Both the position numbers and the translations under genes were made by a program. The notes beneath the pieces were generated by a model that was given only the letters and a program-made list of their open reading frames with translations, made no database searches and had not been told where the DNA came from. Source: a virus (Duplodnaviria; Caudoviricetes). Taken from it: 51,137 bases of DNA. The DNA lies in the IMG/VR virus record IMGVR_UViG_3300030098_003180, positions 1 through 51,137 of that record. One strand, given 5' to 3'. Below are positions 2,547-46,710 of this stretch, one piece after another. Position 1 is the first letter of the stretch. The number at the start of each line of letters is the position of its first letter.

Positions 2547-5474
2547 ACTTAATGCAGCTAATGCAGCTAATCTAGTTTTTTCTTTTTCTAACTCTTTTTG
2601 ATTCTTTGTTTTTCTTTTAGAGCCACGTTCAAAATCAATATTAGGTAATGCAGAAGTAGAATTATAAGTCATATTAAATAATTTCTTTTTCTGTTTATCT
2701 CTCCATTTAGTAATCCATTTAGGTTTAAACATACCTGTTTCTATTCTAAATGCTTTTTCCCATTGACCTTTAGCAAGAGCTGGCATAGTTTTCCAGAAAG
2801 TTCTTGAACCTTGAATATTAAATATTCTACCTACTTGATACCACCAATCAGAATCATCAGGATTATAATTTAACTTTTTATGTTCTTCATATTCATCTGA
2901 TGTTAAGTTTAAAAAATCTGTTATTTCAGCAGCTGTTATAACATCACTTAAAAACGGTCCCAAATTAGCAACTATAGGACCTTTACCATAATAAGAGTCA
3001 TAATATTGTTTTTCTTTATCAGCGTCACCTGAATGATTCATATTACCTAAAAATTGTAAAAGCTTTGAACTCTCCTCCATAATAGGATTCTCTATTATAG
3101 ATACAGTTGCTTTATTGCTACCTCTACGTTTTTGATCCTCCTCAAAAGGAGTAATACCATAAACAGAAGCAAGGCCTCCAACATCAGCGTCTGATACTAA
3201 GGCAAATAACCCAGGTAACACAGAGTATAATGCAGCAGCTCTAAACATTCTTGTAAAACTTTGAGAAACAATCATTTTACTAGGGTCAAGTGGATCTCTT
3301 TCTGTAAATCTGAAACCTTTAACATCCCTAACTAAATCTTTTACCATATTATAATGTAAATCAAAGAAAGCCCATTTAAAATGTTGATACTGACCTATAA
3401 CTTTACCAGCACGACCTTGCAATATTCTAGCTTTAGCCCAGTTATCGTAATCAAAATGTAATTTTTTAACCATTTCAAATGCCATATTACCTGATGTAGT
3501 TTCAATATGATCATAAAGTTGTTTAGTTGTTGGTGCTTTACCAAGTTTCTGTTCTAATTGTTTTTTATGATAATCAAGTCTAGTCTTTTCCCCCATAAAA
3601 GCATGCGCAAAAGCCATATCAAATGTCTCAATTCTATTTCTATTCTCAGCCCACTTCATAAATGTAGAAAACTTATCAGCACCTTTAGCAAATTTATCAG
3701 CTATTTTTCTTGATGTTTCACCTTTAGTTGACCTAATTAGTTGACCTCTATTATTAACATCAAATCCTTCGGGTATAAGTATAACATCCATAGAACCTTT
3801 AGTTGCAGCAGAAACAGTACCTGCAGCCTCTTTAACGCCCATTAACATACCAAATCTTTTCTTTTGCCTGTTAATCATAGCTTCATTAGTTTGCTCTTTA
3901 CCATCAGTAGTAGAATCATATTCTCTAGATGTCTGATTTTTAAAATCTCTAGTTATTCTATAACCTCTTGTTCCATAAAATATCCAGTTATTAAAAGCCT
4001 GTGTTCTGTTTTTTAAAGCACCCCTGACACTAAAACCTAACTTGCTAGCATACTCAAAAGCGTTTATAGTTCTTACCATGTTATCCATAGCAGATGTAGG
4101 GCTTCCATTACTATATAAAGCACTATCCTTTATTTCAGTCATAATTTCTAATAAATGTTTTGAATAAGCACCAACATCCTTATCACCACCTTTTAAGTTG
4201 TTAGACCTTATACTTTCTAATAACGGTTTCATAGCTGAATGATAATTTAAATTAATTCTAGACCTTAAATTAAAAGATGCTACATCATTTACATATTTGT
4301 TTAAATAATAAACAGGATCTAAACTATAATACTTATCAGTTTCACCAGCTATTTTTAATCTATTAACAACATTTTCAGGGCTCAATTCTTTTTCTAATAT
4401 AGCTTCTACCTGCGCTGGTGTCATATTTTTCCAGTCAATACTTTTATTATCTGACTTTGCAAATGATGCTATTTGATGCATAATATCAGTTAATTCTATA
4501 ACATATTTAGGCGAATATTGTTTTAAACCTACTACATATTCACCCTCACCATTATACTTTTGGTATTTTTCATAAGTTTTAGTATAAGGATTAAACACTT
4601 TTAAATCACTTTCATTTTTCAAAACAAGCATTTCACCATCAGATTTATAATTTTTATTAAATTCTCTAAAATTCATCTTACTACTTACAAGTAAAGCGTC
4701 AATTTGATCTTGTACTTTTTCGTAGGCATTCATTAAATGTTTTCTGTTACCCTCATTAGTTACTGACTGAATTAATCTTCTTGCTGAAATGGCCCCATTT
4801 AAGAGGTTTTTCATACTCTCTACACGTAATACATTCCACTCACTAACTATTGTGTTTTCTGTAGGTGTTTTAGGCAGTGTTGTACCATCTAGTAATTTAT
4901 TATAACGAGTAAGTATTTTACCACCTTCAGTTGTTTCTGTAAATAATGTTAGCTTTCTTAATGCTTCAGTTTTTTCTTTAGGAGTAATAGCGTTCATAAG
5001 TTCAGCTTCTAAGTTTTGAAATTCTTTAAAACCACTTTTTGTAAAAGACTCAGTAAACATAGAATATAATCCATCTATCATAACCTTAACATGTCTTCCA
5101 CCTTCTTGTATTTGTCTTTGGTTATAAGACATAGATTCACCTATAGCTTGAACTAATTCATTACCACCTTTAATATTTCTTGCAAGTGCAACAGGTAGTT
5201 TGACGTTTTGAGAAAACCAACCCTGTCTTTTACCTAAAGTAGATCTCCATTCCATAACACCTGCTTTAAATACTCCTGCATCACCCTTGTCTATATGAAC
5301 AGTAGTAGGGTCCCAAGGTTTACCTGTATAGCGATGCCATAAAAATTCAAAATTCTCACTATTCATACCATCAAATTTCTTTATTAAAGGATCTTTAGTT
5401 AATCCAGCAACTACTTTCATAACTTCTTTAAAGTTTTTTCTTTGCGTACTATCTTTGGTTAAGCATAAAGCCAT
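2544..5474 (-). CDS. Large internal virion/ejection protein (976 aa)
   Basis: Last of four large co-oriented genes after the tail fibre; GGAG RBS; helical protein with a hydrophobic segment near the C-terminus. Function inferred from position. Confidence 0.55.
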   Translation of the reverse strand: MALCLTKDSTQRKNFKEVMKVVAGLTKDPLIKKFDGMNSENFEFLWHRYTGKPWDPTTVHIDKGDAGVFKAGVMEWRSTLGKRQGWFSQNVKLPVALARNIKGGNELVQAIGESMSYNQRQIQEGGRHVKVMIDGLYSMFTESFTKSGFKEFQNLEAELMNAITPKEKTEALRKLTLFTETTEGGKILTRYNKLLDGTTLPKTPTENTIVSEWNVLRVESMKNLLNGAISARRLIQSVTNEGNRKHLMNAYEKVQDQIDALLVSSKMNFREFNKNYKSDGEMLVLKNESDLKVFNPYTKTYEKYQKYNGEGEYVVGLKQYSPKYVIELTDIMHQIASFAKSDNKSIDWKNMTPAQVEAILEKELSPENVVNRLKIAGETDKYYSLDPVYYLNKYVNDVASFNLRSRINLNYHSAMKPLLESIRSNNLKGGDKDVGAYSKHLLEIMTEIKDSALYSNGSPTSAMDNMVRTINAFEYASKLGFSVRGALKNRTQAFNNWIFYGTRGYRITRDFKNQTSREYDSTTDGKEQTNEAMINRQKKRFGMLMGVKEAAGTVSAATKGSMDVILIPEGFDVNNRGQLIRSTKGETSRKIADKFAKGADKFSTFMKWAENRNRIETFDMAFAHAFMGEKTRLDYHKKQLEQKLGKAPTTKQLYDHIETTSGNMAFEMVKKLHFDYDNWAKARILQGRAGKVIGQYQHFKWAFFDLHYNMVKDLVRDVKGFRFTERDPLDPSKMIVSQSFTRMFRAAALYSVLPGLFALVSDADVGGLASVYGITPFEEDQKRRGSNKATVSIIENPIMEESSKLLQFLGNMNHSGDADKEKQYYDSYYGKGPIVANLGPFLSDVITAAEITDFLNLTSDEYEEHKKLNYNPDDSDWWYQVGRIFNIQGSRTFWKTMPALAKGQWEKAFRIETGMFKPKWITKWRDKQKKKLFNMTYNSTSALPNIDFERGSKRKTKNQKELEKEKTRLAALAALS

Positions 5475-5483
5475 ATATTCTCC

Positions 5484-8400
5484 TTAAAAACAAGACGACC
5501 AAGTCTCTTGCATTTTTTCTAATGCACTTATAGGTTTTGATTCTGTACCATTATGGTAACTGTTATCTCTAAATGTTTTCTTAGGCTGATACCAAGCACC
5601 ATCTTTACCTAACTGTATTACTGAGCTTCCTTCCCACATACCTTTCATAACAGAACTAATCTCGCTATGTGAAGGCATAGTGCCGCCTGGCCCCATTTTA
5701 TTTTGATTGCTTAAATTATATGTCATCCTATACAACTGTACAGGGTCCATAAAATACGAACCATTTACAAATTGAAGCATTAAATCTTGGCCTTGTCTTT
5801 GTAAGTTAGTATCAAATACAAAGTTAGGCAAATCTTTTAATGGAGAAATAAATCCAAATTGATCATATTTCCTTTTACTAGTTCCAAAATTAAATACATC
5901 TCCTTGCAAACTACCATCGTGCTGTTTTATAAAAGCTGTTTTAAATCTATCATTTAATCTCTGAAAAATATTATTAGCCTGTTCCATGCTCATAACATTC
6001 TGAGCCTCACCACGCATTGCTTTATTTAAAAACTTAAATACTAACCTTTCATTAGTGGTATTCTTTCTAAATGATGGGCTTAGTAAGTTGTTATTATTGC
6101 TATCTTTACCTATAATTTCCCAAGTATTATCTGAAACTTTAGGTACTAATAAATCAAATAAAAACTGCTGCATAATTTGTTCTGACTTTGCTGGAGATAT
6201 TTCTTTAACTCTTTGTAAAAAGTCTGAAACAACAACCATATCAATCTCACCCATCATGGAAAGCCTTCTAGAATCTAAAGGTTTAGTAGGGTCTGCATAA
6301 CTACGCCTTTCATTAGACAGAGTTTTAAAGAATCCATCCTTAGTATTAAACATAAGATTTCTAACCATCATTAATTCTGTTTCATTAAAGTTTCTAGAAT
6401 CTCTAGCAAAAGCATCATGCATTGCGCGTCTAACCATATTAACAGTTTTATCACCTAATATAATTTGACCTGGATTATTATATATAACATCACCTTTTCT
6501 TACTTCATATCTTTCACCTTGTTTAAACTCTCCTACTAAAAAGGTTTCTTCATTCCTTCTTCTATAAACAGCAATATGATTTTGAGCTACACCCTTTCTA
6601 TCTTTACGAACAATATTAGTTTTATGTAAATCATAAATATTAGCAGGGTCATTTAATTCTTTAACTATATTATCCCTAATCATTTGATTTCTTTTTAATT
6701 CACCTTGCCAATATTTACCACTTGATGTGTTTAATAAACCCTTTCTTTGCATTGAATTAACAACATCTTCTATCTTATCTATATTGAATATAATACTTTC
6801 AAGACCAGCAAATGTTTTTTGGTCAGACAGATATTTTTTTACTGCATCACTAACTTTACTGTCCCTTGTTTGAAGACCTAAAACTACTTCAGCAATAGAC
6901 GATTCAGAAGGGATAGATTTATGGAAATTTTCTTTAGAGTTTCTTAAACCTATCATAGCTTGAACAACAGGATTGGCAGACATGCCAGATCTAGTTTGAC
7001 CTTTTTTATATCCTTCACCTAAAAATCCTAACAAGTTATCCACAATTGATCCATATTCGTTTTGTTGGTAAGTTTTGGTAGTTTTATCAAACAATAAATT
7101 ACCTTTGTTGTCTCTTTTGAACGATGCAAATTTCATTAAAGATAAATTTTGCTCATACTTATACAACATTTCAAATGCAGACATTTTTCTAGATGTTCCA
7201 TCAGCGAAAGATTCTGTCATATGTATTAAGTTGTGTATACGATCCATTGGTCGTAACACTTTAGATATAAATCCTTCAATAGAAGTTTTAGGACTCAAAC
7301 CATCTCTATTTGCAGCACTAGGCAATTCTTCATAAGTAATATACTCAGCTTTATCTTTTACTTTTGACCTACGTATGTTTAAAAACCCATTTTCAGGATT
7401 TAGCCAAGCCTCTTTAACCATATCTACGTCTTGTATATTACCTCTTTCTTTATATATATCAATAGTAGATTTAATAAGGTTTTTAGTATGTGTCATAGCA
7501 TCTACAAATGCTGCATCATTCTTTAATTCAACAACATATTTTTCACCTTCATAATTAAACTCAAATAATTTAAAGTTTTTATTAGCACCTGTTACTTTAC
7601 CGTCTAAAATAGATTGAGAATACGCTGTTCCAGGTTTAAATAACTCTTGTTTAGTAGATATATATTGCAATAACGTACTAAGAGTAGACACTTGTCTCAT
7701 TAATGGTGCTCTTTTAGATTCTAGCTGCTTTAATACTGCTGCATAATTAGTCATCTGTAAAGGGTTATCCATTTTAACTTCGCTAAATGCTCTATCAAAA
7801 ACAGCCATACTTGCAGGATCATTATATCCAGCAACGTTATAAGCTTCTCTAACAACTTCACCAGGAAGTGCAAAGAAACTAGAAGATTTATCTAAATCAA
7901 AGTCAGCATCTTGAGGTTGTATTACGTCTAAGTAATTCATTTCACTAACTGGGCCTCTTCTTCTGTCTAATAATTTTTCAACACGAGTAATAACCCAATC
8001 ATTCATACCTACTTTAGGAACTCTAAGGTCTATTTTAGCAAGATGTACAGACTGAAAATCATTACCAGTCTTGCCTTTACCCCAAACAAAATTTCTCATT
8101 TTTTCAGTTACTGTAGAGGCTGCATTATTATTTCTTACATTAGGTTTATTTGAGTGACTTTCTAACGTATATGTTTGATTGTAATTACCAAATTTCCATT
8201 GAGTATTATCTAATGTCCCATTTAAATACATTGCTAAATCACCTATTGTTTTAATACCTTCTGACCTAAGAGCTGATTCCATAATAACATTATATGAATC
8301 TAAAATATGTTGCTCAAATTTAATAATTTGCTTACCTATATCATTAAGATTACCACCAGTTTTTTTCATATACTGTTGATGTGGTCCTACTATATGGCCA

Positions 8401-11400
8401 TCATGAGTAATTAATACATCCATACCAGTTTCAATACCAATTATATCTTGTTTATTTTTGAAGAACTTATTAATCATATTTTCATTTATTTTAAATACAA
8501 GGCTGACACCTTCTCTAGGATTTATTCTACTAACTTTACCGCCATCTCCTATTTTATACATACTTGATATATCTGTACTATGCTCTGAATAAGACATTCC
8601 AGATCCACCAAATGAATGTTGAACCCCGTTTCTTCTATCACCTAGAGAATAACCAGAACCTGCTGACATGACATTCATTTTGCCTGCACTTACAGAACTA
8701 GATGCAAAGTTTCTACTACCCATATAATCACTTGAAACCATTTTTTCTACAGAAGGTTGCATAAATTCAAACAAAGGTAAACCATTAGCATTTAATACAG
8801 CTTCTGCACCTATAAGTTTGTTTATAGTTCCACCACTTTCATGCTCAAAGTTTTTAAGTCTAGTTACTACTTTTTGATATGAAAATGGATTTTCTGACAA
8901 TGAACTAAATGTTTGTATCATTTCACTAACAACATTATTTTGACCAGTCATTTCAGCTAACGATCTAATAGCTTTGTTAGACATTAAATTACCAAATCCA
9001 TAACTTAAAGTAGCATCATGAATACCAGCTATAGATTTAATCATTATACCTTCTCTACCTATTTCAACAACTTCATTAACCGCATCTCTTGGTAATCCTT
9101 TTTCAAACATAACTCTTTGAAAATCAGTTTCACTACTTATTCTTTCTAAATGAACACCAGGCTTCCTTGTTTCTACACCATTTGAAACCTCATGAATCTT
9201 ATGTGTGCTTTCAAAGCCAATAGAATCAGTAAAATAATCTCCACCTATTTTCATAAGTTTGTCCATTTCTGGATGGAATTTATAAGCAGTTTTACCTACA
9301 TGGGTTACAAGTTCACCTTTAACAGAGTCGAAATGTTTATACATTTCAATAGGTTTGATAGCAACATTAAATCCTACAACAGTTTGAACAGGGACATACC
9401 TACCATCTTTTTTTATGTAGTTACCTTTACTATCCTTTTGCATAACTACTCTATTATTCATATCTAATTTATCACCCCAAATAAACCAATCTGTTCTTGC
9501 TCCTTTGCTCATTAACATAGCAGCCATTTCAGGTAAAGATAAATATTTTTCAGCATTTTGAGCTGAAGCGTGAATAGTCTCATAAGATTCCATAATCAAA
9601 TCAACTCTTTCTTGTACTTCAGACTTGTTTAATTTAGGATTATTAAATTGGATTTGTTGTATTAATTGTTCTTTGGCTAACTCTTTAGTCCCAAAAAAGC
9701 TTGCACCAAGACCACTCTCATCAAACAAGTTTAAAGTTCTATGTTTGGTTGGAGTTTTCCCGTCTTGACCAAAAAATTGTCTGTTATATATATCAACAAC
9801 TTCTTTCATGTTAGAGTTAGGATCTATAAATGTTTCAAGAAAATGTTTAGCAGTCTCTAAGTTTCTTTTAGTTAAAGCAAAACCTCCTCTAGGAGAGTCT
9901 AATTTTATGTATTTTAAATCTGATAACACTTCTTTTATTGTAGTATTTCCAGACATAACATCTGCTAATCTTTGACCACTAAAGGCATTTAATAATCTAG
10001 TAATAGATACAAGCCTTTGAACGTTTTCAGCGTTAGGCTCAATTTTAAAATTACCCTTACTATCCATTGTGGCGCCTAATTCTTTCTTAAAATAATTTTC
10101 TATTATTCTAGCCGCATCAGCAACAGGCATAGCAGTTGTTGCAAGTTCATTAATTAATTGTTTTCTTAAAGGACCTTCAGCTAATGACCATGCTTGTGTT
10201 ACTTTTTGCATAGAATACTGAGGTATAATAACTACAGTTTTTTCATCTAATTGAACAGGAATTAATTCTAACTGCCCTTTCTTTCCTTTACCACCTAAAT
10301 AACTTTTAAATTTATCAAAGAAAAGTATATCATTTTTAGATAATACCTCCCTAATACTTGGAGCTAAAGGTAATCCAGCAGCTAATTGATTGTAAACTTT
10401 TTGAATTTGTTCTGGAGGTAAAGAAGAACTTCTTGTTCCTTTATAAGATATTTCTGGACTAAATAATAATATATCACCCACATCAAACAAACCTAATGAT
10501 TGTTGTAGTTTGTTTATACCAACATTCCAATTAGAAATACTTGTTTCTTCTACATGAACCATGCCATTTTCATACTTCGCTAAATGAACCTTTTTAGAAC
10601 CTAAAGCGCTTTGCATTAAAAACATAGTATCTAGTATAAAATCTTCATATGTCCCTGGTTCTCTTCCATTTTTCTTTTGTCTGGTAATATGAGCTTCAAC
10701 TAAAGGTTTCATATTCTCAATAAAAGGTTTCATTACAACATCAATATACTGCTTTTCTGTAAAAGTACCTCTTATAACAGAGTTAATTCCATCTACTAAC
10801 ATTTCTCTATAAGTTATATCTTTAACACCTAAGTTATTAAGTAAATTAGTTTTAACTTGTCCTTGCATTTGATCTAAACGTTCAAACAATAATCTTGGTT
10901 GAGTTAATATATCGGACATTGTTTCAGCAGATATTCCCCATTTACTTTCGTATTGAGAAGGGCTAATAGATGTGTGGGTTTGATGTGGCCTACCAACACG
11001 ATCACTATTTAAAACATTATTGATTCTTTCTTCTATATAATTTTGAACATCTTCATAAGTTTCAAATCTACCAAGTTCATTCCTTTTATCTAAAGCTTTA
11101 ATAACTATAGATTCAAATTCTTGCCTTAAATTTTCTAAAGTTTTTGATGTTGCCTTACCAGGTTGTCCAATAATCAATTTTTGCTCAAATTGCTGCATTT
11201 TTTCACTTGCATCCATTAATGTTCTTAACCCAATTGCATCATTGGTTGCCATATATTTTTGAATTAAAGACAAAACATTTTCATTTACATTACTAATTTC
11301 AGTTACTTTAGTCATTAATTCTTTAGCGAGATCAGGTTTAGTGTCTAAAATAGATTCAGCTTGAGCCATTAGGTTCATAATTCTTTCCTGGATCTTATTG

Positions 11401-14400
11401 TTATCAATAAATAAGCCTGCACTTTCTGAAACATGAAATTTATTTACTTCACCTAAAGCAGTTTCAATCTCTTGCATTAATTTTTGACGCTCTCTACCTG
11501 GCATATCTAAGTCAATCGGTTTATCTCCAAACTTTATTATACCTTTAGTTTTCTTTAATTGATTTTTTAAAGGAGCTTCAACTTTATTCTCATATTCAGT
11601 TATCTTATTTAACAAAACATCTCTTTCAGCTGGAGGAAGATTTAATCTTACAACACTTTGTCTTAAAGATTCAGCTGATCTAACTACTACAGAACCACCT
11701 GATTTAACTTTAAGCAAAGATTCTCTATCCATCATACTAACTATAACTCTTCTTAAACCTGAAGTTAAGTTTGCGTTTCCTGTTAATTCATTCGCATATT
11801 CTCTATACACGAAGACATTCATAAAGGCATTATATTCACTATTGCTTTCAAATATATTTCCAAAAGCTTTATTTAAGTCCTTACTTAAAGTCTCAAATTC
11901 ACCCTTATTAATATCTCTTGCGCCAGTTTTACCAGTATTATCAAACAACTCTAATACTCTATTAATTCTTTCTAAATTGGCTATTTCATTAGCCTCCATA
12001 GATGCTTCTACGCCTATCTCACCTTTTAAAACTTCTTCTACAACTCTAAATCTAGAACGACCTCCTAGCATTTTTTGTATATTAGAATACATTGTTTGTA
12101 ATTCTGGGGTTCCTCCACCTTGTTTACCTAAAACCTCATAAACTAATCTACTTCTTTTAATTCTATTAGCAGCTTGAACTGACTGCCAAATAGCAGTTTG
12201 TCCCATTATATACTTATCTTTAAACCCTGCATCTGGTTTAGTGAAACCTGGAACATTCTCTCTCCAGTTATCCATCTTCTTGCCATCTAAGCCATTATAC
12301 ATAAGTTCATGCATAGACTCTGTGCTAGTTTTATAAACCTCTAACATTTTTTCAAGTTTACCTAATTCTATTTTTTCCTGATTCCAAGAAACACCTTTGC
12401 TGCTAACATCTAAACTACCTGCGGCCTTAGCAGAATCAATTGTTTCTAAAAGAGAATGAGCAGCATCTGCTATTGGTTTTCCAGCATAGTCTAAACTTAT
12501 AGTTTTTAAAGCATCTCTTACTGTTTCATGTACAAACATTTTACCATTTTGTTCACTAACAATAGAATCTAAACCTATAGCGCCTAAAGAATCCTTTATA
12601 TATTGATGACCCATTTGCTGAATGTTCTCAGTTATTTTTAATTTAGCTAACTCTACCTTAGTATCTATAAGATCTAAATTACTAGAATCAATAACTGTTC
12701 CATCATTAAGCTTAAAGTTATCAAATGTTTTAATATACTCTAAAGCTTCTGCTTGAGTCATATACTTCATTTGTTTCCCAACCATACCAGCTGCAGATAA
12801 TGATGATATTTTAGTTGCTATATTTAATAAGTTTTGCAAATCATTTACTTCTTTAGAAGTTCTAGCAGCAGCTTCTATATTATTATCTTTTTTATGTTGA
12901 GCTTGAATTTTAATTAAGTCACCAATTTTCTTTTGAACGTGAGTTTGAAAAGGCAAAGGTCTTTCATTAAACTTAACTTTATTATCTATAGACTCTTGTA
13001 ATCTTTGTTGGTTTTTATTTATATCTACAAATTCTGCTCTAGAACCTTCTATAAATTCACTTATTTGAATACTAGATTCTTTAGAAGCTGAATCAAGAAT
13101 TAACTTAACAGCTGTATCTGTATCCCCTATTGTAAATGCATTATATATATCGTTCTTAGCAGGCTCAAAACCTAACCTTTCATAAGACTGTAAGAATCTT
13201 TGTATTTCACTACCATTACCATGTAATCCTGTTTGATCATAAAACTTAGGTAACCTTGCAGATTTAGGGTCAAATTTCTTACCACGCTTCATATACAACA
13301 TACCAACCCAATGGTCAAACACTAACTTGTCTACAGGATAATCTTCTGTAAACAGTATACCTGAATCGTACGCTGCTGAATAAGCTCTTGCGTTCATAGC
13401 TAAAGAACCTACAGATGCCCTTGTAAATGATTCAAAACCATCTCTAACAATTTCTTTTTGTAATTTTCTAATTAAACCATCTTTTCCAGGTAATGATTTC
13501 TTTACTATATTATAAGCGTTTTCTAATATTTCTCTTTCATTTACACCTAAAGAAGTACCTTTTCCTACTTTAGTAATCATATCATCTAATGCCGACTTTG
13601 TTAAACCAGAGCCTGGAAACGCAGCACCTATATCATCAGCACCTTTAGAAAAACTATTTATAAATGCTAATAAAGCACTATCATTTTGATCTGCCGCTTT
13701 CTTTCCAAACCTTGATCTAAGCATGCTACCCATAGCCTTAAAGTCAGCTATCATTCCAGACTTACCAAATTGAACACCTTTACCACCAGGTATATATCTT
13801 ATAGGGGCAAGTATTGCACCAGTTTGAGCTCCATGCATAGCTCTTTTATACCACTCTTCATAACCCCATTCATTTTCATTTAACCCATATTGTTGAGCAG
13901 CATAATCACCAGCTTCACCAGCTATCGTATCCCATGTTGCTAATAACACAGATTCATAAGCTATATCGCCTGCTAAAATAGCCATCTTTTTATTCCATCC
14001 ACGCTCTAATAGTTTATGAGTTATAGATTGTCCGAAATGAACATGTCTTGTTTGAGATGCAGAGTTTATTATAGATGATGTCATTTTTTCTACAGACTCT
14101 TCAAAAGATTCTTTACCCGCTTTTTTAACTCCTTCTTCACCAAGCTCTTTTGTAAGCATTTCAGCAACTTCTTTTTTTACATTATCTGTAATTTTTGTTG
14201 TCAATTGAGGGGCGCTATTGAAAGGATTTACTCTAGCTTCTTTTCTTTTAAAGTAATTAAACCAATTGTAGCTTCCTGCCGCCTCTTTACCTGCTTCATC
14301 AATTTGTGAACGAGTTGATTTTATGACTGTTTTCATAGCATCATCGCTCACACTTGTCACAATACCTTTAGCAATATCATCACTTAAATTTTTAACTGCA

Positions 14401-14873
14401 CTTTTACCTGCTTCTTGAACAGCCTTTTTCATACCAGCGCCTGCAACTTTACTTGTAAGACCTATACCTTTACCTACAGCCCCAATACCTGTTAATATAC
14501 CTGCACCTGTACCAATAGCATATCCTATTTTACCTGCTAAAGATTCATCTTTCCAATCTTGTGAACCAAATTGAGCAGAAATATCAGGTCCTCCAGATAC
14601 TTCAGAAGCAACATCAGCTACCGTAGGTACTACAAAAGTTTCACCAAAACCCCATAAAGCATTACCAACAAAGTCAAATAAAAAGAAATCATCTACCCAA
14701 GTATATGTAGGCTCTTTAGGCGTTGCAGATTTTACACCCATTTTTCTAGCAGTTGGACTTAAAGGATCACCAGGTAATTGTAACCCTAAAGGTTTTGCTG
14801 GTTCTGTTTGAACTGCAGTAGGCTTTATAGTTGTTCTATTTCGCCAGTCTTCATAACTTTTATATTTACCCAT
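5484..14873 (-). CDS. Putative virion-packaged single-chain two-barrel RNA polymerase (3129 aa)
   Basis: DADFDLDK (DFDLD at about aa 2324-2328) preceded about 40 aa earlier by LRVP, paralleling beta' NRxP...NADFDGD and the DFDID motif of crAss-like phi14:2 gp66. Gly/Ala-rich hydrophobic N-terminus; giant size; located in the cargo block. Confidence 0.75.
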   Translation of the reverse strand: MGKYKSYEDWRNRTTIKPTAVQTEPAKPLGLQLPGDPLSPTARKMGVKSATPKEPTYTWVDDFFLFDFVGNALWGFGETFVVPTVADVASEVSGGPDISAQFGSQDWKDESLAGKIGYAIGTGAGILTGIGAVGKGIGLTSKVAGAGMKKAVQEAGKSAVKNLSDDIAKGIVTSVSDDAMKTVIKSTRSQIDEAGKEAAGSYNWFNYFKRKEARVNPFNSAPQLTTKITDNVKKEVAEMLTKELGEEGVKKAGKESFEESVEKMTSSIINSASQTRHVHFGQSITHKLLERGWNKKMAILAGDIAYESVLLATWDTIAGEAGDYAAQQYGLNENEWGYEEWYKRAMHGAQTGAILAPIRYIPGGKGVQFGKSGMIADFKAMGSMLRSRFGKKAADQNDSALLAFINSFSKGADDIGAAFPGSGLTKSALDDMITKVGKGTSLGVNEREILENAYNIVKKSLPGKDGLIRKLQKEIVRDGFESFTRASVGSLAMNARAYSAAYDSGILFTEDYPVDKLVFDHWVGMLYMKRGKKFDPKSARLPKFYDQTGLHGNGSEIQRFLQSYERLGFEPAKNDIYNAFTIGDTDTAVKLILDSASKESSIQISEFIEGSRAEFVDINKNQQRLQESIDNKVKFNERPLPFQTHVQKKIGDLIKIQAQHKKDNNIEAAARTSKEVNDLQNLLNIATKISSLSAAGMVGKQMKYMTQAEALEYIKTFDNFKLNDGTVIDSSNLDLIDTKVELAKLKITENIQQMGHQYIKDSLGAIGLDSIVSEQNGKMFVHETVRDALKTISLDYAGKPIADAAHSLLETIDSAKAAGSLDVSSKGVSWNQEKIELGKLEKMLEVYKTSTESMHELMYNGLDGKKMDNWRENVPGFTKPDAGFKDKYIMGQTAIWQSVQAANRIKRSRLVYEVLGKQGGGTPELQTMYSNIQKMLGGRSRFRVVEEVLKGEIGVEASMEANEIANLERINRVLELFDNTGKTGARDINKGEFETLSKDLNKAFGNIFESNSEYNAFMNVFVYREYANELTGNANLTSGLRRVIVSMMDRESLLKVKSGGSVVVRSAESLRQSVVRLNLPPAERDVLLNKITEYENKVEAPLKNQLKKTKGIIKFGDKPIDLDMPGRERQKLMQEIETALGEVNKFHVSESAGLFIDNNKIQERIMNLMAQAESILDTKPDLAKELMTKVTEISNVNENVLSLIQKYMATNDAIGLRTLMDASEKMQQFEQKLIIGQPGKATSKTLENLRQEFESIVIKALDKRNELGRFETYEDVQNYIEERINNVLNSDRVGRPHQTHTSISPSQYESKWGISAETMSDILTQPRLLFERLDQMQGQVKTNLLNNLGVKDITYREMLVDGINSVIRGTFTEKQYIDVVMKPFIENMKPLVEAHITRQKKNGREPGTYEDFILDTMFLMQSALGSKKVHLAKYENGMVHVEETSISNWNVGINKLQQSLGLFDVGDILLFSPEISYKGTRSSSLPPEQIQKVYNQLAAGLPLAPSIREVLSKNDILFFDKFKSYLGGKGKKGQLELIPVQLDEKTVVIIPQYSMQKVTQAWSLAEGPLRKQLINELATTAMPVADAARIIENYFKKELGATMDSKGNFKIEPNAENVQRLVSITRLLNAFSGQRLADVMSGNTTIKEVLSDLKYIKLDSPRGGFALTKRNLETAKHFLETFIDPNSNMKEVVDIYNRQFFGQDGKTPTKHRTLNLFDESGLGASFFGTKELAKEQLIQQIQFNNPKLNKSEVQERVDLIMESYETIHASAQNAEKYLSLPEMAAMLMSKGARTDWFIWGDKLDMNNRVVMQKDSKGNYIKKDGRYVPVQTVVGFNVAIKPIEMYKHFDSVKGELVTHVGKTAYKFHPEMDKLMKIGGDYFTDSIGFESTHKIHEVSNGVETRKPGVHLERISSETDFQRVMFEKGLPRDAVNEVVEIGREGIMIKSIAGIHDATLSYGFGNLMSNKAIRSLAEMTGQNNVVSEMIQTFSSLSENPFSYQKVVTRLKNFEHESGGTINKLIGAEAVLNANGLPLFEFMQPSVEKMVSSDYMGSRNFASSSVSAGKMNVMSAGSGYSLGDRRNGVQHSFGGSGMSYSEHSTDISSMYKIGDGGKVSRINPREGVSLVFKINENMINKFFKNKQDIIGIETGMDVLITHDGHIVGPHQQYMKKTGGNLNDIGKQIIKFEQHILDSYNVIMESALRSEGIKTIGDLAMYLNGTLDNTQWKFGNYNQTYTLESHSNKPNVRNNNAASTVTEKMRNFVWGKGKTGNDFQSVHLAKIDLRVPKVGMNDWVITRVEKLLDRRRGPVSEMNYLDVIQPQDADFDLDKSSSFFALPGEVVREAYNVAGYNDPASMAVFDRAFSEVKMDNPLQMTNYAAVLKQLESKRAPLMRQVSTLSTLLQYISTKQELFKPGTAYSQSILDGKVTGANKNFKLFEFNYEGEKYVVELKNDAAFVDAMTHTKNLIKSTIDIYKERGNIQDVDMVKEAWLNPENGFLNIRRSKVKDKAEYITYEELPSAANRDGLSPKTSIEGFISKVLRPMDRIHNLIHMTESFADGTSRKMSAFEMLYKYEQNLSLMKFASFKRDNKGNLLFDKTTKTYQQNEYGSIVDNLLGFLGEGYKKGQTRSGMSANPVVQAMIGLRNSKENFHKSIPSESSIAEVVLGLQTRDSKVSDAVKKYLSDQKTFAGLESIIFNIDKIEDVVNSMQRKGLLNTSSGKYWQGELKRNQMIRDNIVKELNDPANIYDLHKTNIVRKDRKGVAQNHIAVYRRRNEETFLVGEFKQGERYEVRKGDVIYNNPGQIILGDKTVNMVRRAMHDAFARDSRNFNETELMMVRNLMFNTKDGFFKTLSNERRSYADPTKPLDSRRLSMMGEIDMVVVSDFLQRVKEISPAKSEQIMQQFLFDLLVPKVSDNTWEIIGKDSNNNNLLSPSFRKNTTNERLVFKFLNKAMRGEAQNVMSMEQANNIFQRLNDRFKTAFIKQHDGSLQGDVFNFGTSKRKYDQFGFISPLKDLPNFVFDTNLQRQGQDLMLQFVNGSYFMDPVQLYRMTYNLSNQNKMGPGGTMPSHSEISSVMKGMWEGSSVIQLGKDGAWYQPKKTFRDNSYHNGTESKPISALEKMQETWSSCF

Positions 14874-43477: not shown

Positions 43478-44223
43478 TTTATCTCCTTTGGCCTTTCCGC
43501 CTCTGCTAGCTTATCTTTACTAAACCCTTGAAATACAGCACCAGTAAGTTGAGTAACTTGTGTTTTATTTTTATCTTCTAAATCCATAATGTCTGCAAGT
43601 TTAAATAAAGCTTTTAATTTAGTTTCATCTTTTTCAGAAGACATAGCAATAGTATTGATATTCTTTAATATACTATTTTCATTTATACCTAACTCTTCTA
43701 AAACAGGTTTTAATTCTTCTTTCATAGCTGTTTTTATCCTCGTAGTTTTTACTAATTGTCCAGCCCGCAATCCAGCATAGTGCGGGTCATTTGTAGGAAA
43801 TGCCTTTAGATACGCCTTGCGGGCATCCATTCCAGATGCTAAGTACTGGACAAATTCATGTTCCCTACTTGATAGATTCTCTCTATCTTCAATTCTTTGG
43901 TTTCTCTCTACATGGCCACCTATACTATATATATTTACCCTTTTAGAGGTGTCCATCTTAGTTTTCTCTGATACTATAAATGTACCTGTACAAGTACCTA
44001 TATATCTTTGCTGTCTATCTTTTCCGTAAGGTTTCATCATAGATCCTTCACGTAAAATCTGTATTACGCAACCATCATCAGATTTAACCCAATCACCTAT
44101 AGAACCTTTTCTCCAGTTATACAGATAGTCTATATCATTAGGTATTTCTTCAGTATCTTCAAAAACTGTGTGCTCTATTTTATTTATCTTATATGTTCTC
44201 ATATATAACCCTAAACCCGCCAA
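43474..44223 (-). CDS. Terminase small subunit-like protein with N-terminal extension (start may be ATG 44202)
   Basis: LSSREHEFVQYLASGMDARKAYLKAF...AGQLVKTTRIKTAMKEEL...KLKALFKLA matches the TerS HTH/oligomerisation pattern; first large gene of the late block. Confidence 0.65.
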   Translation of the reverse strand: MAGLGLYMRTYKINKIEHTVFEDTEEIPNDIDYLYNWRKGSIGDWVKSDDGCVIQILREGSMMKPYGKDRQQRYIGTCTGTFIVSEKTKMDTSKRVNIYSIGGHVERNQRIEDRENLSSREHEFVQYLASGMDARKAYLKAFPTNDPHYAGLRAGQLVKTTRIKTAMKEELKPVLEELGINENSILKNINTIAMSSEKDETKLKALFKLADIMDLEDKNKTQVTQLTGAVFQGFSKDKLAEAERPKEIK

Positions 44224-44232
44224 GGGTTTAGA

Positions 44233-44418
44233 TTAGGCTATCCCCAAAACTTCATGATCTAAGTTATCTAGCATGTACTCACCCATTTCTTTACTTATAG
44301 GTATATCTACTCCATCTACTTCAATACAATAGTCTACCTCATTAAATTGTTCTGATAAGTGAACACATTCATCACTTTTACCATCATAAACTATCTTTAA
44401 CACATATTCCTTTTTCAT
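44233..44418 (-). CDS. Hypothetical protein
   Basis: AGGAG RBS; first gene of the minus-strand block. Confidence 0.65.
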   Translation of the reverse strand: MKKEYVLKIVYDGKSDECVHLSEQFNEVDYCIEVDGVDIPISKEMGEYMLDNLDHEVLGIA

Positions 44419-45161: not shown

Positions 45162-45287
45162 TGTTATATATATTAATAATTACTTATGGTTATTGATAGC
45201 CTGTGTAGACGGTGTGTCTGCAATGTATCATAGTGTGCCTGCGTGTATAGTATATATATACCAACATATAGCACACATAAGACTTAG

Positions 45288-45363
45288 TGCGGGTGTGACG
45301 TCTGGTGATGTCGACTGTCTCATAAGCAGGTCCTGACTGGTTCAATTCCAGTACCCGCAACCA
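45288..45363 (+). tRNA. tRNA with CAT anticodon (Met; acceptor arm resembles fMet)
   Basis: Acceptor TGCGGGT/ACCCGCA, D arm GACG/TGTC, anticodon loop CTCATAA (CAT at 45321-45323), T arm ACTGG-TTCAATT-CCAGT, encoded ACCA; 76 nt. Confidence 0.9.
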
Positions 45364-45505
45364 ATTAAACTGTTCCACTGCGAACCTATGAGATGGGCTA
45401 CATCAGAGTCATGAACTGAGTTGCTTAGCGCTGGTCTGTCTCATTAAATGTTGCAAGTAAACCTTTCTAACAAGAACTGTTAAATATAATAGAAAGGAGG
45501 TGTCC

Positions 45506-45637
45506 ATGAAGGATACTACTTGTAAGAAATGTACTGTGCGTGATCAGTATATTACTACGTTGCTTGACACTGCTACTAGGTATAAGAATGCTTATATCAA
45601 GGCGCAGAAGAAGTTGCGTAACAGAGCTGGGAAATAA
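45506..45637 (+). CDS. Small basic protein (43 aa, not in ORF track)
   Basis: Full AAAGGAGGTG RBS; MKDTTCKKCTVRDQYITTLLDTATRYKNAYIKAQKKLRNRAGK. Confidence 0.65.
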   Translation: MKDTTCKKCTVRDQYITTLLDTATRYKNAYIKAQKKLRNRAGK

Positions 45638-45676
45638 TCCTGGCTCTTTGAACTCTCAAACCAATAAGGAGAAATT

Positions 45677-45880
45677 ATGGCAAAACCTAGTGTTATAGAT
45701 GTATTACCTGAAGAGGTAGTTGAATTAGATAGTATTGAGAATCAAACGCAAGCTTTCTTAGTTGCAATGAAAGATATACTAGATACTCAATGTAGGATGA
45801 TGATGGATAAGGATAGTTATGTGGAACGCAGACGGATTGAAAGAATTGTATTACCAAAGGGATTCAAGTTAATTGGATAA
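45677..45880 (+). CDS. Hypothetical protein
   Basis: AAGGAG RBS; 67 aa. Confidence 0.7.
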   Translation: MAKPSVIDVLPEEVVELDSIENQTQAFLVAMKDILDTQCRMMMDKDSYVERRRIERIVLPKGFKLIG

Positions 45881-45886
45881 CCTTTC

Positions 45887-45965
45887 GGGGATGATAGGTA
45901 TTCGACTGTTCTTAACGCTGTCATGCAGAGGGAATAGGAAGTGAGTTCGATTCTCACCATCTCCA
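45887..45965 (+). ncRNA. Miniature tmRNA-like RNA (tRNA-like domain only)
   Basis: 5' GGGGATGATAGGTATTCGAC resembles tmRNA 5' ends. Acceptor GGGGATG/CATCTCC has a G3:U pair and discriminator A; T arm GTGAG-TTCGATT-CTCAC; no D stem; helix CTGTTCT/GGAATAG capped by a short loop. Confidence 0.7.
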
Positions 45966-45989
45966 CTAAAGATTTTATGAACAATGAAA

Positions 45990-46710
45990 ATAGGTCGCTT
46001 CGGATCTATAGGATAGTACATGGTAACATGTATTAAAGTTAATAGCGCCAGCAATGGTCCAACGGAAGCAAGCAGGTATTGCTACTAACCTCAATGGAGT
46101 AATCTTTGAGAGGATGGTAGTCAGGCTGATGGTAAAGCTGTGAGTATGGTGACATACAATAAATAAACCTGTAAGATACTTAAGATGAGCCTGTGGGAGG
46201 TGAGTCTGGGTGTTATGAAAACATGGTAATCTCGTAGTGATATGAGATATGTCGTGTCAAGATTTGATGTCTCCCAAAGACATTGGAAGAGTCTAGTTAT
46301 GTATTCACTGTCGTAAGATAGCGAGCATATCCACGAGCACTGGACTTGGAATACCTAAAACTAACTTAATCGTTAAATAATATATAACAGAATATAAAAA
46401 CGACAAAGTTCTTGTGGCGTTACAGAGCATAGGGCTCTAATACCTTACACTTAGGTGAATAAGGTGCTGAATGGTTGGTCAACAACTTGAAGGTTTTGTG
46501 ACGAAAGCGTCAGTCTTGGGTCTGCAGCCTGGGATGTCATTGTGACTTAATTGATGTTATTAGTTGCTGAAACAGCTGTAACGTTAAGAGTGGTAGTCTA
46601 TAACTACTGAGCTTGCTAATGTACTTGAGTCAAATCAAGTGGATAAGTCTAAAACCCATTATGGGAACATAGGACGAAAGTATTAGCGTAAAGAGTGTAA
46701 TCTCAACTCG
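45990..46710 (+). ncRNA. Large structured ncRNA, GOLLD/ROOL-type candidate
   Basis: About 720 nt with no credible ORF, GC higher than its flanks, many GNRA/UUCG-capped hairpins and long-range helices, and adjacent to tRNA genes. Boundaries are approximate and the family is not confirmed. Confidence 0.65.

Follow-up and report, generated by a model that had tools for sequence, protein, structure and literature searches.

The window analysed here (the whole stretch of 51,137 nucleotides from an uncultured marine phage, Caudoviricetes; IMG/VR record IMGVR_UViG_3300030098_003180) encodes on its plus strand, at 45887–45968, a tmRNA that consists of the tRNA-like domain (TLD) only, with 79 nt up to the discriminator and a CTA trailer bringing it to 82 nt. 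The best explanation of this mini-tmRNA, to which we assign a probability of roughly 0.5, is that it comes from a functional phage gene and that this tag-less tmRNA, charged with alanine, would compete with the host tmRNA for SmpB and stalled ribosomes. The idea of a TLD-only phage tmRNA is not new, mycobacteriophage DS6A being the precedent; what is new here is how broad the class is, how seldom ARAGORN detects it, the conserved chromosomal copies in Nostocales and Poribacteria, and the placement beside GOLLD RNA in this phage family.

Anatomy of the mini-tmRNA

The Rfam tmRNA model (RF00023) matched 45887–45968 end to end (59.1 bits against a gathering threshold of 47; E = 1.1e-20), in an alignment spanning model positions 1–374. 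Such a comparison with tmRNA models had been proposed in an earlier note made from the sequence alone, which had also described both tmRNA termini, the G3:U pair, a helix-2-like stem, the absence of a D stem and a length of 79 nt, and all of these features are present. The 5′ strand of the acceptor stem (G1–G7, 45887–45893) pairs at 7 of 7 positions with 45958–45964, G45889 (G3) facing T45962 (U70), and the 3′ strand ends in the discriminator A45965 (45958–45965), so that the 7-bp acceptor with G3.U70 and A73 is that of a canonical tmRNA. A D-loop analogue without a D stem, aligned to the Rfam consensus, occupies 45894–45906 and ends in TTCGAC (45901–45906). Helix 2 (P2a) is formed by 45906–45913 and 45930–45937 and measures 8 bp in the window (CG, UA, GU, UA, UA, CG, UG, UG). 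Just 16 nt separate its two strands (45914–45929); this cap, a small hairpin of CUG/CAG around a CAUG-type loop, stands in place of pseudoknots PK1–PK4 and the tag message. A GAA junction (45938–45940; GAC in the class consensus) leads to the T arm (45941–45957; a 5-bp stem with the loop TTCGATT, read from the sequence). The trailer, likewise read from the sequence, is CTA (45966–45968); CCA is not encoded, as the first reading had it, and must therefore be added after 3′ processing.

The element shares with canonical one-piece tmRNA (RF00023) the acceptor, the D-loop analogue (UUCGAC with G19, no D stem), helix 2a, the T arm with its GTTCGAnTC T-loop region, the alanine identity and the SmpB contacts. 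It differs in lacking PK1–PK4 and the mRNA-like domain (resume codon, tag frame, stop codon), 306 of the 374 model positions being missing and replaced by 14 nt. A hidden tag frame was considered and rejected: the window holds a six-codon GCU-to-UAG frame, but GCN-to-stop frames are not enriched in the class (18 of the 99 members listed, versus 25.7 ± 4.4 in shuffles). The original description of the element as having no tag reading frame is thus borne out. Cryo-EM work names A15, U17, G19 and A334 as SmpB contacts in tmRNA, and G19C abolishes SmpB binding according to the same paper (PMC8363625). All four are kept in the window element, the equivalents of E. coli A15, U17 and G19 being A45900, T45902 and G45904 in the D-loop analogue, and that of A334, which belongs to the SmpB Trp122 pocket, being A45939 in the junction. 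A phage-encoded SmpB was rejected, the SmpB family matching in none of 50 phage records of the class (this window included) and in none of the 23 of those that are at least 90% complete; the mini-tmRNA would thus depend on host SmpB.

The fold of the single sequence is unremarkable (−23.9 kcal/mol, z = −1.61; 14 of 200 shuffles were equally good); what carries the case is the model score, together with comparison across about 100 related sequences. ARAGORN called no gene in the whole window, which neither supports nor refutes the mini-tmRNA. A canonical tRNA, an alternative raised at the outset, was rejected: the element has neither a D stem nor an anticodon arm, ARAGORN is silent, and the best match within the clan is tmRNA and not tRNA.

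A class in viruses and bacterial chromosomes

A pattern scan recovered the same build in at least 120 viral contigs, with 99 distinct sequences of 62–89 nt among the matches listed, and a separate scan recovered it in at least 120 bacterial contigs. Among the matches listed, the Rfam tmRNA model scored above threshold in 46 of 50 viral class records, none of the 50 carried a full-length tmRNA alongside, and CCA was encoded in 36 of 99 sequences. ARAGORN called 5 of the 121 viral loci listed, so the mini-tmRNA is probably missing from most phage annotations. tRNA genes lay within 1 kb at 24 of these 121 listed loci, on the same strand in 23 of the 24, and in one record (G003) the mini-tmRNA heads an array of 31 tRNAs. 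Conserved chromosomal copies were found in Nostocales and Poribacteria, each beside a normal full-length tmRNA, those of Nostocales being syntenic across genera (81 nt in Nostoc or Anabaena); this shows that the form does not serve solely as a weapon against hosts. The acceptor stem of the mini-tmRNA matches that of the host tmRNA in Poribacteria and mismatches it in Nostoc and Streptomyces.

Class members were found with tmRNA-derived patterns, which makes the conservation of fixed motifs circular, and only unfixed positions were counted. A MAFFT alignment held 86 of the 99 sequences (13 of ≤ 73 nt or ≥ 85 nt were left out); the variable 5′ end was misaligned in it, and only 11 pairs came out of RNAalifold, so pairs were counted from fixed anchors with shifted-register controls. 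Among the 99 sequences listed, acceptor pairs 4–7 covary while pairs 1–3 are essentially invariant; pair 5, for example, is paired in 97 of 99 (GC 32, CG 31, AT 22, TA 6, GT 5, TG 1). T-stem pairs 1–4 are paired in all 99, with three to five pair types each. Helix 2 has 7 bp in the class, among which all six standard pair types occur, and pairs 0–6 are paired in 77–98 of 94–99 listed sequences (pairs 1–6: 97, 96, 90, 89 and 84 of 99, and 77 of 94), versus mostly 24–45 of 92–99 in the shifted registers (at the anchor pair, down to 0 and up to 91 of 99). The covariation that the earlier note had wanted sought in relatives is therefore strong, at unfixed positions of the stems, and sequence comparison shows a class under selection, with its stems kept by covariation.

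A second scan with nothing fixed in the acceptor gave 117 unique matches among those listed, of which 110 have a full T stem and at least six of seven acceptor pairs. In these 110, pairs 4–7 vary, and G1–C72 (110/110), G2–C71 (109/110), G3.U70 (109/110) and A73 (110/110) are kept; for the 32 acceptor-free matches from loci missed by the earlier scan, G3.U is present in 31 and A73 in 32. The adenine equivalent to A334, at a position not fixed by the pattern, occurs in 99 of 99 listed class members. Across the class, these counts thus show selection both on the nucleotides of alanine identity and on the adenine of the SmpB pocket. At the junction, 80 of the 99 listed members have GGAC and four have the GGAA of the window; this departure counts against our best explanation in the case of the window element.

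Precedents and proposed modes of action

In two papers of one group, which described the DS6A form (Hudson, Lau & Williams 2014, PMC4131195; the tmRNA database paper of 2025, PMC11915505), mycobacteriophage DS6A is reported to have a ‘TLD only’ tmRNA, and a TLD-only molecule, as cited there from Mao et al. 2009, to act as an inhibitor of E. coli tmRNA, perhaps through titration of SmpB. In the summary of Hudson et al., the inhibition by the TLD-like molecule was independent of charging. The earlier note's statement that no description in phages was known has to be withdrawn, both the form and the SmpB-titration idea being in print in these papers. DS6A is the single phage example of a tag-less tmRNA in the searched literature, where the supplements of PMC4131195, PMC11915505, PMC9004378 and PMC12286853 may list more.

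The DS6A element has the same build as that of the window (acceptor of 7 bp with G3.U70, D-loop analogue, helix 2 of 7 bp, A-rich bulge with a small capped hairpin, T arm, A73), a likeness read from its sequence; the DS6A record annotates no RNA gene in the 5 kb examined. Its trailer, like that of the window element, is CTA and not CCA, it sits in a gap without annotation, at a distance from any annotated integrase, and is phage-encoded like the window element, and the role proposed for it, titration of SmpB, is the one proposed here. The window element in turn has the DS6A-type layout of contiguous TLD halves, short helix 2 and capped hairpin within about 60–90 nt (82 nt). The two differ in that DS6A reads GTCGAC where the window reads TTCGAC, in showing no detectable sequence similarity beyond the T arm (26 nt at 88.5%), and in that the host of DS6A is an actinobacterium, whereas the present phage is uncultured and marine.

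Tag-less forms are also known from organelles, where tmRNAs without a coding sequence occur in jakobid mitochondria and, at about 65 bp, in plastids of Mallomonadaceae (PMC11915505; PMC4131195). These likewise consist of the tRNA-like domain only, have no tag frame and are presumed partners of SmpB; they are, however, the only tmRNA of their organelle and vertically inherited, whereas the window element is an accessory phage gene beside a full-length tmRNA of the host. Full-length phage tmRNAs have been described in Bxz1-type mycobacteriophages, in Bacillus phage G and, as a two-piece form, in phage Melnitz (PMC4131195; PMC9004378); unlike the window element, they encode a tag and can complete trans-translation.

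As a competitor, the mini-tmRNA would be made like a tRNA, as its frequent position in same-strand tRNA arrays of the wider class suggests, and host enzymes would trim it and add CCA. Host AlaRS would charge it with alanine through G3.U70 and A73, and host SmpB would bind its elbow. The resulting Ala-TLD.SmpB.EF-Tu complex would compete with the full-length host tmRNA for SmpB and, if it can enter them, for stalled ribosomes, so that stalled chains in the infected cell would escape the SsrA degradation tag, presumably to the benefit of the phage. Inhibition that is independent of charging fits a plain SmpB sponge, and a sponge alone does not explain why the alanine set is so strictly conserved.

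An alternative that we hold only tentatively, at well under even odds, is a productive tag-free rescuer adding rescue capacity instead of inhibiting: Ala-TLD.SmpB would enter stalled ribosomes and accept the nascent chain, drop-off followed by peptidyl-tRNA hydrolase or an ArfB-type factor would resolve the complex, and ribosomes would become available to phage translation with no tag being added, much as tag-less mitochondrial tmRNAs are presumed to achieve. That the alanine identity set is strictly conserved while neighbouring pairs covary, and that CCA is encoded in 36 of the 99 listed sequences, suggests that charging, and hence delivery by EF-Tu, matters, which argues for such a rescuer. 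The Poribacteria and syntenic Nostocales copies beside full-length tmRNA are hard to square with a purely harmful inhibitor, and the organellar tmRNAs without a coding sequence co-occur with SmpB (PMC11915505). A rescuer with neither resume codon nor stop codon would nevertheless have no built-in termination, no release factor lies nearby (the neighbouring ORFs have no family match), and the sole reported experiment on a TLD-only form is said to show inhibition, not rescue (PMC4131195; PMC11915505). SmpB decoy and tag-free rescuer were the two functions suggested from the first reading of the sequence, and both are left standing by the evidence.

The phage family and the GOLLD neighbourhood

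The mini-tmRNA is present in 5 of the 65 relatives' records searched. Plain blastn recovered the full-length element in 2 of 80 relatives' loci and a purpose-made detector in 3 of 80; this detector gave no match in reversed-sequence controls and picked up 106 of 121 known loci. Relative L300 carries three internal substitutions, one of which changes a G.U pair to G–C, and in relative L369 (the same as G137) the element is retained, double compensatory changes having occurred in helix 2, including its 3′ strand, and in the T stem. The cap sequence is the same in L300, G083 and G137 bar one C/U difference, while helix 2 is changed in G137. In L299, the closest relative, the element is missing through a clean 88-nt indel, and no partly degraded copy was found in the relatives, where the element is either intact or cleanly absent. 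The mini-tmRNA is dispensable in the family. Its restriction to 5 of 65 relatives' records and its absence from the closest relative count against our best explanation.

A tRNA-like gene with a CAU anticodon loop lies upstream on the same strand (45287–45363; 35.2 bits with the tRNA-Sec model, below the gathering threshold of 47); ARAGORN is silent on it, and it is 96% identical in L299. PHROGs and Pfam gave no family match for the ORFs adjoining the mini-tmRNA and recognised, elsewhere in the window, a small terminase, a head protein, a DnaB-like helicase fragment and a lectin-fold (Laminin_G_3) domain, as well as weak Terminase_6C and JAB matches. A blastn search of 45400–46500 against INPHARED phages and a tblastn search with the major head protein gave no match, and hence there is neither a cultured relative nor a host assignment.

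The downstream neighbour is a probable GOLLD RNA (46009–46709, plus strand), made up of a 3′ region that matches the Rfam model just below its threshold (46289–46709; RF02032, 147.8 bits against a gathering threshold of 150, E = 1.6e-40; 155–176 bits in relatives) and a probable 5′ domain upstream of it. Contigs from RNA libraries of four runs in three studies cover 46009–46657 (RNA runs only), and those of the three studies start at 46009–46053, that is 41–85 nt past the 3′ end of the mini-tmRNA. No assembled RNA-library contig spans 45887–45968, which is uninformative either way because the contigs are assembled and the RNA is just 82 nt. Coverage outside GOLLD is not nil, one RNA run (X12) giving low-depth pieces at 43667–43874 and 44198–44373. 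A scan for promoters and terminators was not above shuffles (9 promoter-like sites versus 11.7 ± 3.3).

Four of the five relatives with a mini-tmRNA have GOLLD directly adjacent, in three different sequence types; in one the mini-tmRNA lies 296 nt upstream of the GOLLD model start, as in the window, and in three it lies 14–15 nt downstream. Reported work likewise describes tRNA-shaped genes right beside phage GOLLD (PMC12286853; PMC6582537), which are ordinary or pseudo tRNAs, unlike the tmRNA-type element of the window; no link between GOLLD and a tmRNA-type element was found in the portions of the literature searched. GOLLD as a general partner of mini-tmRNAs was rejected, since it occurs in 4 of 148 listed class records.

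A broader proposal, which we consider unlikely, is that TLD-only mini-tmRNAs may be widespread, selected, alanine-charged SmpB ligands that modulate trans-translation in hundreds of phages and in Nostocales and Poribacteria chromosomes, and that here the mini-tmRNA may be functionally coupled to the GOLLD nanocage RNA, sharing its transcript and serving as a handle that joins GOLLD with stalled ribosomes or SmpB. Likewise unlikely is an accessory of GOLLD or the tRNA island with no role of its own in trans-translation, acting either as an RNase P/RNase Z handle that defines the ends of GOLLD or as a tethered or packaged tRNA-like partner of the nanocage. The recurrent adjacency just described would fit such an accessory, as would the reported position of GOLLD near tRNA islands, with tRNAs sometimes in the linker, and its reported ribosome pull-down (PMC12286853), and the start of the RNA contigs shortly after the element hints weakly at a processed boundary. 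Against this, the four GOLLD-positive records among the 148 listed reduce to 1 of 28 when only those at least 90% complete are counted, 7 of 11 GOLLD-positive relatives' records have no mini-tmRNA match (some of their GOLLD matches lying at contig ends), and a processing handle needs neither G3.U70 and A73 nor the SmpB-pocket nucleotides, and any tRNA could serve as one.

A non-functional remnant of host ssrA integration or capture (an att-site fragment or a decayed phage tmRNA) is highly improbable: integration into tmRNA genes is common, ssrA fragments can occur in phages (PMC9004378; PMC11590407) and some close relatives have the element while others lack it, but this reading, already envisaged in the earlier note, is contradicted by the covariation, in which compensatory changes maintain every stem, by the recurrence of one 62–89 nt build in 99 distinct listed viral sequences, by the copies in relatives that are never partly degraded, and, for an att-site fragment, which was rejected, by the presence of both TLD halves, not the 3′ part alone, joined by a purpose-built hairpin, and by the absence of any Phage_integrase or Resolvase match (tyrosine or serine recombinase) in the window.

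The tRNA genes of phages have received much discussion, but how phages interfere with ribosome rescue has barely been explored. The mini-tmRNA class is common and, judged from its sequences, under clear selection, keeping exactly the nucleotides for alanine charging and the SmpB pocket, and whether phages turn off SsrA tagging, or add tag-free rescue, during infection can now be tested with simple reagents. The chromosomal copies suggest that cells may regulate their own trans-translation by the same trick. The recurrent adjacency to GOLLD in one marine phage family is a new lead on GOLLD function and, if the coupling of mini-tmRNA and GOLLD is true, it would be the first mechanistic link of GOLLD to translation.

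A tmRNA reduced to its tRNA-like domain

The element at window positions 45887–45968 (+) is a miniature tmRNA consisting of the tRNA-like domain (TLD) only. Read from the sequence on the plus strand, a 7-bp acceptor stem (45887–45893 with 45958–45964), with G45889.T45962 as its third pair and A45965 as discriminator, encloses a stretch without a D stem that ends in TTCGAC (45901–45906), an 8-bp helix (45906–45913 with 45930–45937) closed by 16 nt, a three-base GAA junction immediately 5′ of the T arm (before 45941) and a standard T arm (45941–45957). The trailer up to 45968 is CTA, so that CCA is not encoded. All of this, from the G3:U pair and the helix-2-like stem to the uncoded CCA, agrees with the earlier note. 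The Rfam tmRNA model (RF00023, gathering threshold 47 bits) matched the mini-tmRNA end to end over model positions 1–374 (59.1 bits, E 1.1e-20), with 14 nt in place of 306 model positions. ARAGORN called neither tRNA nor tmRNA over the entire window. The single-sequence fold gave the expected structure and was not significant alone (z −1.61); the weight of the observation lies in the Rfam score and in the comparison with other sequences. The original reading of the feature was sound except on precedent, since the note knew of no description in phages and ‘Mycobacterium phage DS6A (TLD only)’ appears in the 2014 tmRNA list of Hudson, Lau and Williams (PMC4131195). The 2025 tmRNA database paper credits the DS6A form with inhibition of the endogenous tmRNA in E. 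coli and also mentions CDS-less plastid tmRNAs of ~65 bp (PMC11915505). The concept was therefore already in print for this one phage. The DS6A element, which lies where nothing is annotated between gp33 and a DNA polymerase gene, has the same build as that of the window, and its A-rich bulge and capped hairpin were also seen in many other viral mini-tmRNAs. No wider description of miniature phage tmRNAs was found in the literature searched.

Breadth of the viral class and selection on its sequence

A scan of viral contigs with a pattern in which GGGG, TTCGAC, the T-loop core and CTCCA were the sole fixed parts, 20–50 nt being allowed between the two halves, returned at least 120 loci, and a variant pattern added one more (Rfam, 54 bits). 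The viral loci among the matches listed correspond to 99 distinct sequences of 62–89 nt. Rfam tmRNA scores were above threshold in 46 of 50 class records among the matches listed, and no match in these 50 exceeded 115 nt, which means that no full-length tmRNA accompanies the mini form in any of these phage records. ARAGORN called five of the 121 loci among the matches listed (four as tmRNA, one as tRNA-Glu), i.e. the class is near-invisible to this program. Mini-tmRNAs frequently reside in tRNA arrays, with other tRNA genes at 25 of these 121 loci, within 1 kb at 24 of them and on the same strand at 23 of those 24. In one phage fragment (G003, locus L124) the mini-tmRNA opens an array of 31 tRNAs (3031–10881); this array also holds a GOLLD-like element (70 bits) with a tRNA-Ser inside it. 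A complete 136-kb phage (G056, locus L052) encodes two separate mini-tmRNAs (61.4 and 57.3 bits). No SmpB gene was found in the 50 class phage records, including that of the window, 23 of which are at least 90% complete.

Covariation was counted in the 99 distinct viral sequences, among the matches listed, at positions that the pattern left unfixed. Acceptor pair 5 was paired in 97/99 (GC 32, CG 31, AT 22, TA 6, GT 5, TG 1), pairs 6 and 7 in 90/99 each, and T-stem pairs 1–4, each represented by three to five pair types, in 99/99. For helix 2, counted from fixed anchors, pairs 0–6 were formed in 98, 97, 96, 90, 89 and 84 of 99 and in 77/94 sequences. Pairs 1–6 show five or six pair types each, and in shifted-register controls they formed in 24–45 of 92–99; pairing dropped off beyond pair 6. 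This nearly perfect pairing, preserved through compensatory change, indicates that every stem is under selection. A second viral scan left the acceptor wholly unfixed and gave 117 unique matches; in 110 of them the T stem was perfect and six or seven of the seven acceptor pairs formed. Among these 110 listed matches, G1-C72 was present in 110, G2-C71 in 109, G3.U70 in 109 and A73 in 110, which are the alanine identity nucleotides of tRNA-Ala; pair 4 was more variable (GC 80, CG 17, TA 4, GT 4, AT 4, one unpaired C/T) and pairs 5–7 varied freely. The 32 of these matches that came from loci missed by the first scan kept G3.U in 31 and A73 in all 32, and the single exception looks mis-registered. 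According to PMC8363625, AlaRS recognizes tmRNA through G3.U, and A334, A15 and U17 of E. coli tmRNA form a pocket for SmpB Trp122. The junction adenine equivalent to A334, which the pattern did not fix, was invariant (99/99 among the matches listed), and the window retains the equivalents of A15, U17, G19 and A334. The absence of a tag reading frame claimed for the element extends to the class, which contains no hidden one: GCN-to-stop frames occurred in 18 of the 99 sequences among the matches listed, against 25.7 ± 4.4 in shuffles. CCA was encoded in 36 of these 99.

Proposed competition with host tmRNA, possible rescue and cellular copies

An RNA that has selected stems, keeps its alanine identity set and the SmpB-pocket adenine invariant, lacks a message and is carried by phages in which no SmpB was found would be processed like a tRNA, given CCA, charged by host AlaRS and bound by host SmpB. 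Together with EF-Tu it would contend with the host's tmRNA for access to SmpB and to stalled ribosomes, and stalled chains would escape SsrA tagging. We put the probability that the mini-tmRNA is such a competitor or inhibitor of tagging at about one half, a reading that gains support from the inhibition reported for a similar molecule. That the charging determinants are so strictly conserved points to something beyond a passive sponge and keeps in play productive tag-free rescue as the selected function, a possible though rather unlikely explanation; conserved chromosomal copies do likewise.

These copies came from applying the first viral pattern to one genome per prokaryotic species (at least 120 matches). 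Two big conserved clusters stood out among the matches listed, one of 81 nt in Nostocales and one of ~83 nt in Poribacteria (six loci and others); the other matches came from scattered assemblies or, in a few cases, were plainly false positives. The Nostocales copies are chromosomal, conserved and syntenic across genera (eight loci and many more), and no prior account of them was found in the literature searched. The one Nostoc locus examined has a same-strand tRNA about 130 nt downstream and the PsrR1 sRNA nearby, and the one Nostocales genome checked, a Nostoc, also encodes a normal full-length tmRNA. Mini and normal (357–390 nt) forms coexist in the Nostoc, Poribacteria and Streptomyces genomes examined; the two share their acceptor stem in the Poribacteria pair compared but not in the Nostoc and Streptomyces pairs. 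Pattern matches also occurred on contigs binned as archaea (Iainarchaeum and Promethearchaeota; loci L147, L185 and L243), which are expected to have neither tmRNA nor SmpB. The complete mini-tmRNA build is present at L147; acceptor pairing is poor at L185 and L243, which could be false positives. Genuine matches of this kind would probably lie on viral or mis-binned contigs.

GOLLD adjacency and the phage's relatives

The IMG/VR virus record, a linear sequence of 51,137 bp with an estimated completeness of 91%, carries its structural genes, including small terminase and major head protein, on the minus strand; a single 3129-codon open reading frame (5484–14873, −) lies among them. No cultured phage matched the window, no tyrosine or serine recombinase was found in it, and the five runs with at least half of its sampled words are all labelled marine metagenome (two studies). 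The mini-tmRNA lies in ~860 nt without credible ORFs, a 67-codon ORF ending 7 nt before it. At 45287–45363 (+), 520 nt upstream, lies a tRNA-like gene whose anticodon loop carries CAU, whose acceptor stem has 8–9 bp and whose ACCA end is encoded. It scores 35.2 bits with the tRNA-Sec model (threshold 47), is missed by ARAGORN and shows 96% conservation in L299, the closest relative.

About 320 nt downstream of the mini-tmRNA, the Rfam model for the conserved 3′ part of GOLLD RNA matches 46289–46709 (+) at a score slightly short of its threshold (147.8 bits, threshold 150, E 1.6e-40); with its probable 5′ domain the GOLLD RNA is placed at 46009–46709 (+). Contigs of four marine metatranscriptome runs (three studies) span 46009–46657 at 95–100% identity, which fits GOLLD as an abundant RNA, and their starts at 46009–46053 hint weakly that the stable RNA begins 41–85 nt after the mini-tmRNA. 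Relatives collected via the small terminase comprised 80 loci (60–92% identity), with 65 searchable records. Among these 65, the mini-tmRNA was detected in five (three above threshold, two at 45.6–45.8 bits) and GOLLD in 11 (relatives score 155–176 bits above the threshold of 150). GOLLD directly adjoins the mini-tmRNA in four of the five: in G083 the mini-tmRNA is 296 nt upstream of the GOLLD model start, as arranged in the window, and in G099, G118 and G143 it lies 14–15 nt downstream of the GOLLD 3′ end, the four comprising three different mini-tmRNA sequence types. In published work GOLLD occurs close to tRNA islands and in some cases has tRNAs within its linker, and ribosomes are reported from GOLLD pull-downs (PMC12286853, PMC6582537). 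A role as a GOLLD or tRNA-island accessory nevertheless seems improbable; GOLLD was found in only four of 148 class records among the matches listed (one of the 28 at least 90% complete), so the mini-tmRNA does not depend on it. Such adjacency characterizes this phage's lineage and may reflect a hot spot at which tRNA-like genes insert, or else local functional coupling.

A non-functional remnant is very unlikely. In relatives the element is either maintained or cleanly absent, which answers the refuting condition set in the earlier note, a variably degraded pseudogene or att-site remnant. L299, with nearly identical flanks, lacks exactly window 45879–45966 (an 88-nt indel). L300, a relative beyond the 65 records, carries the element with three internal substitutions, one changing G.U to G-C. 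In L369 (record G137), which keeps the element, helix 2 shows a C-G to G-C swap, one G.U to G-C and two U.G to U-A changes, the T stem one A-U to G-C, and the cap hairpin a single C/U difference. This clean absence, together with intact copies bearing compensatory changes, shows the mini-tmRNA to be an accessory gene in the phage's family. What probability remains falls to explanations other than competitor, rescuer, accessory or remnant. A published link between miniature phage tmRNAs and GOLLD was not found in the literature searched, nor were descriptions of the breadth of the class, its near-invisibility to ARAGORN or its cellular copies; it is this adjacency, these copies, the low detectability and a class both large and conserved that give the work its value beyond a single finding.
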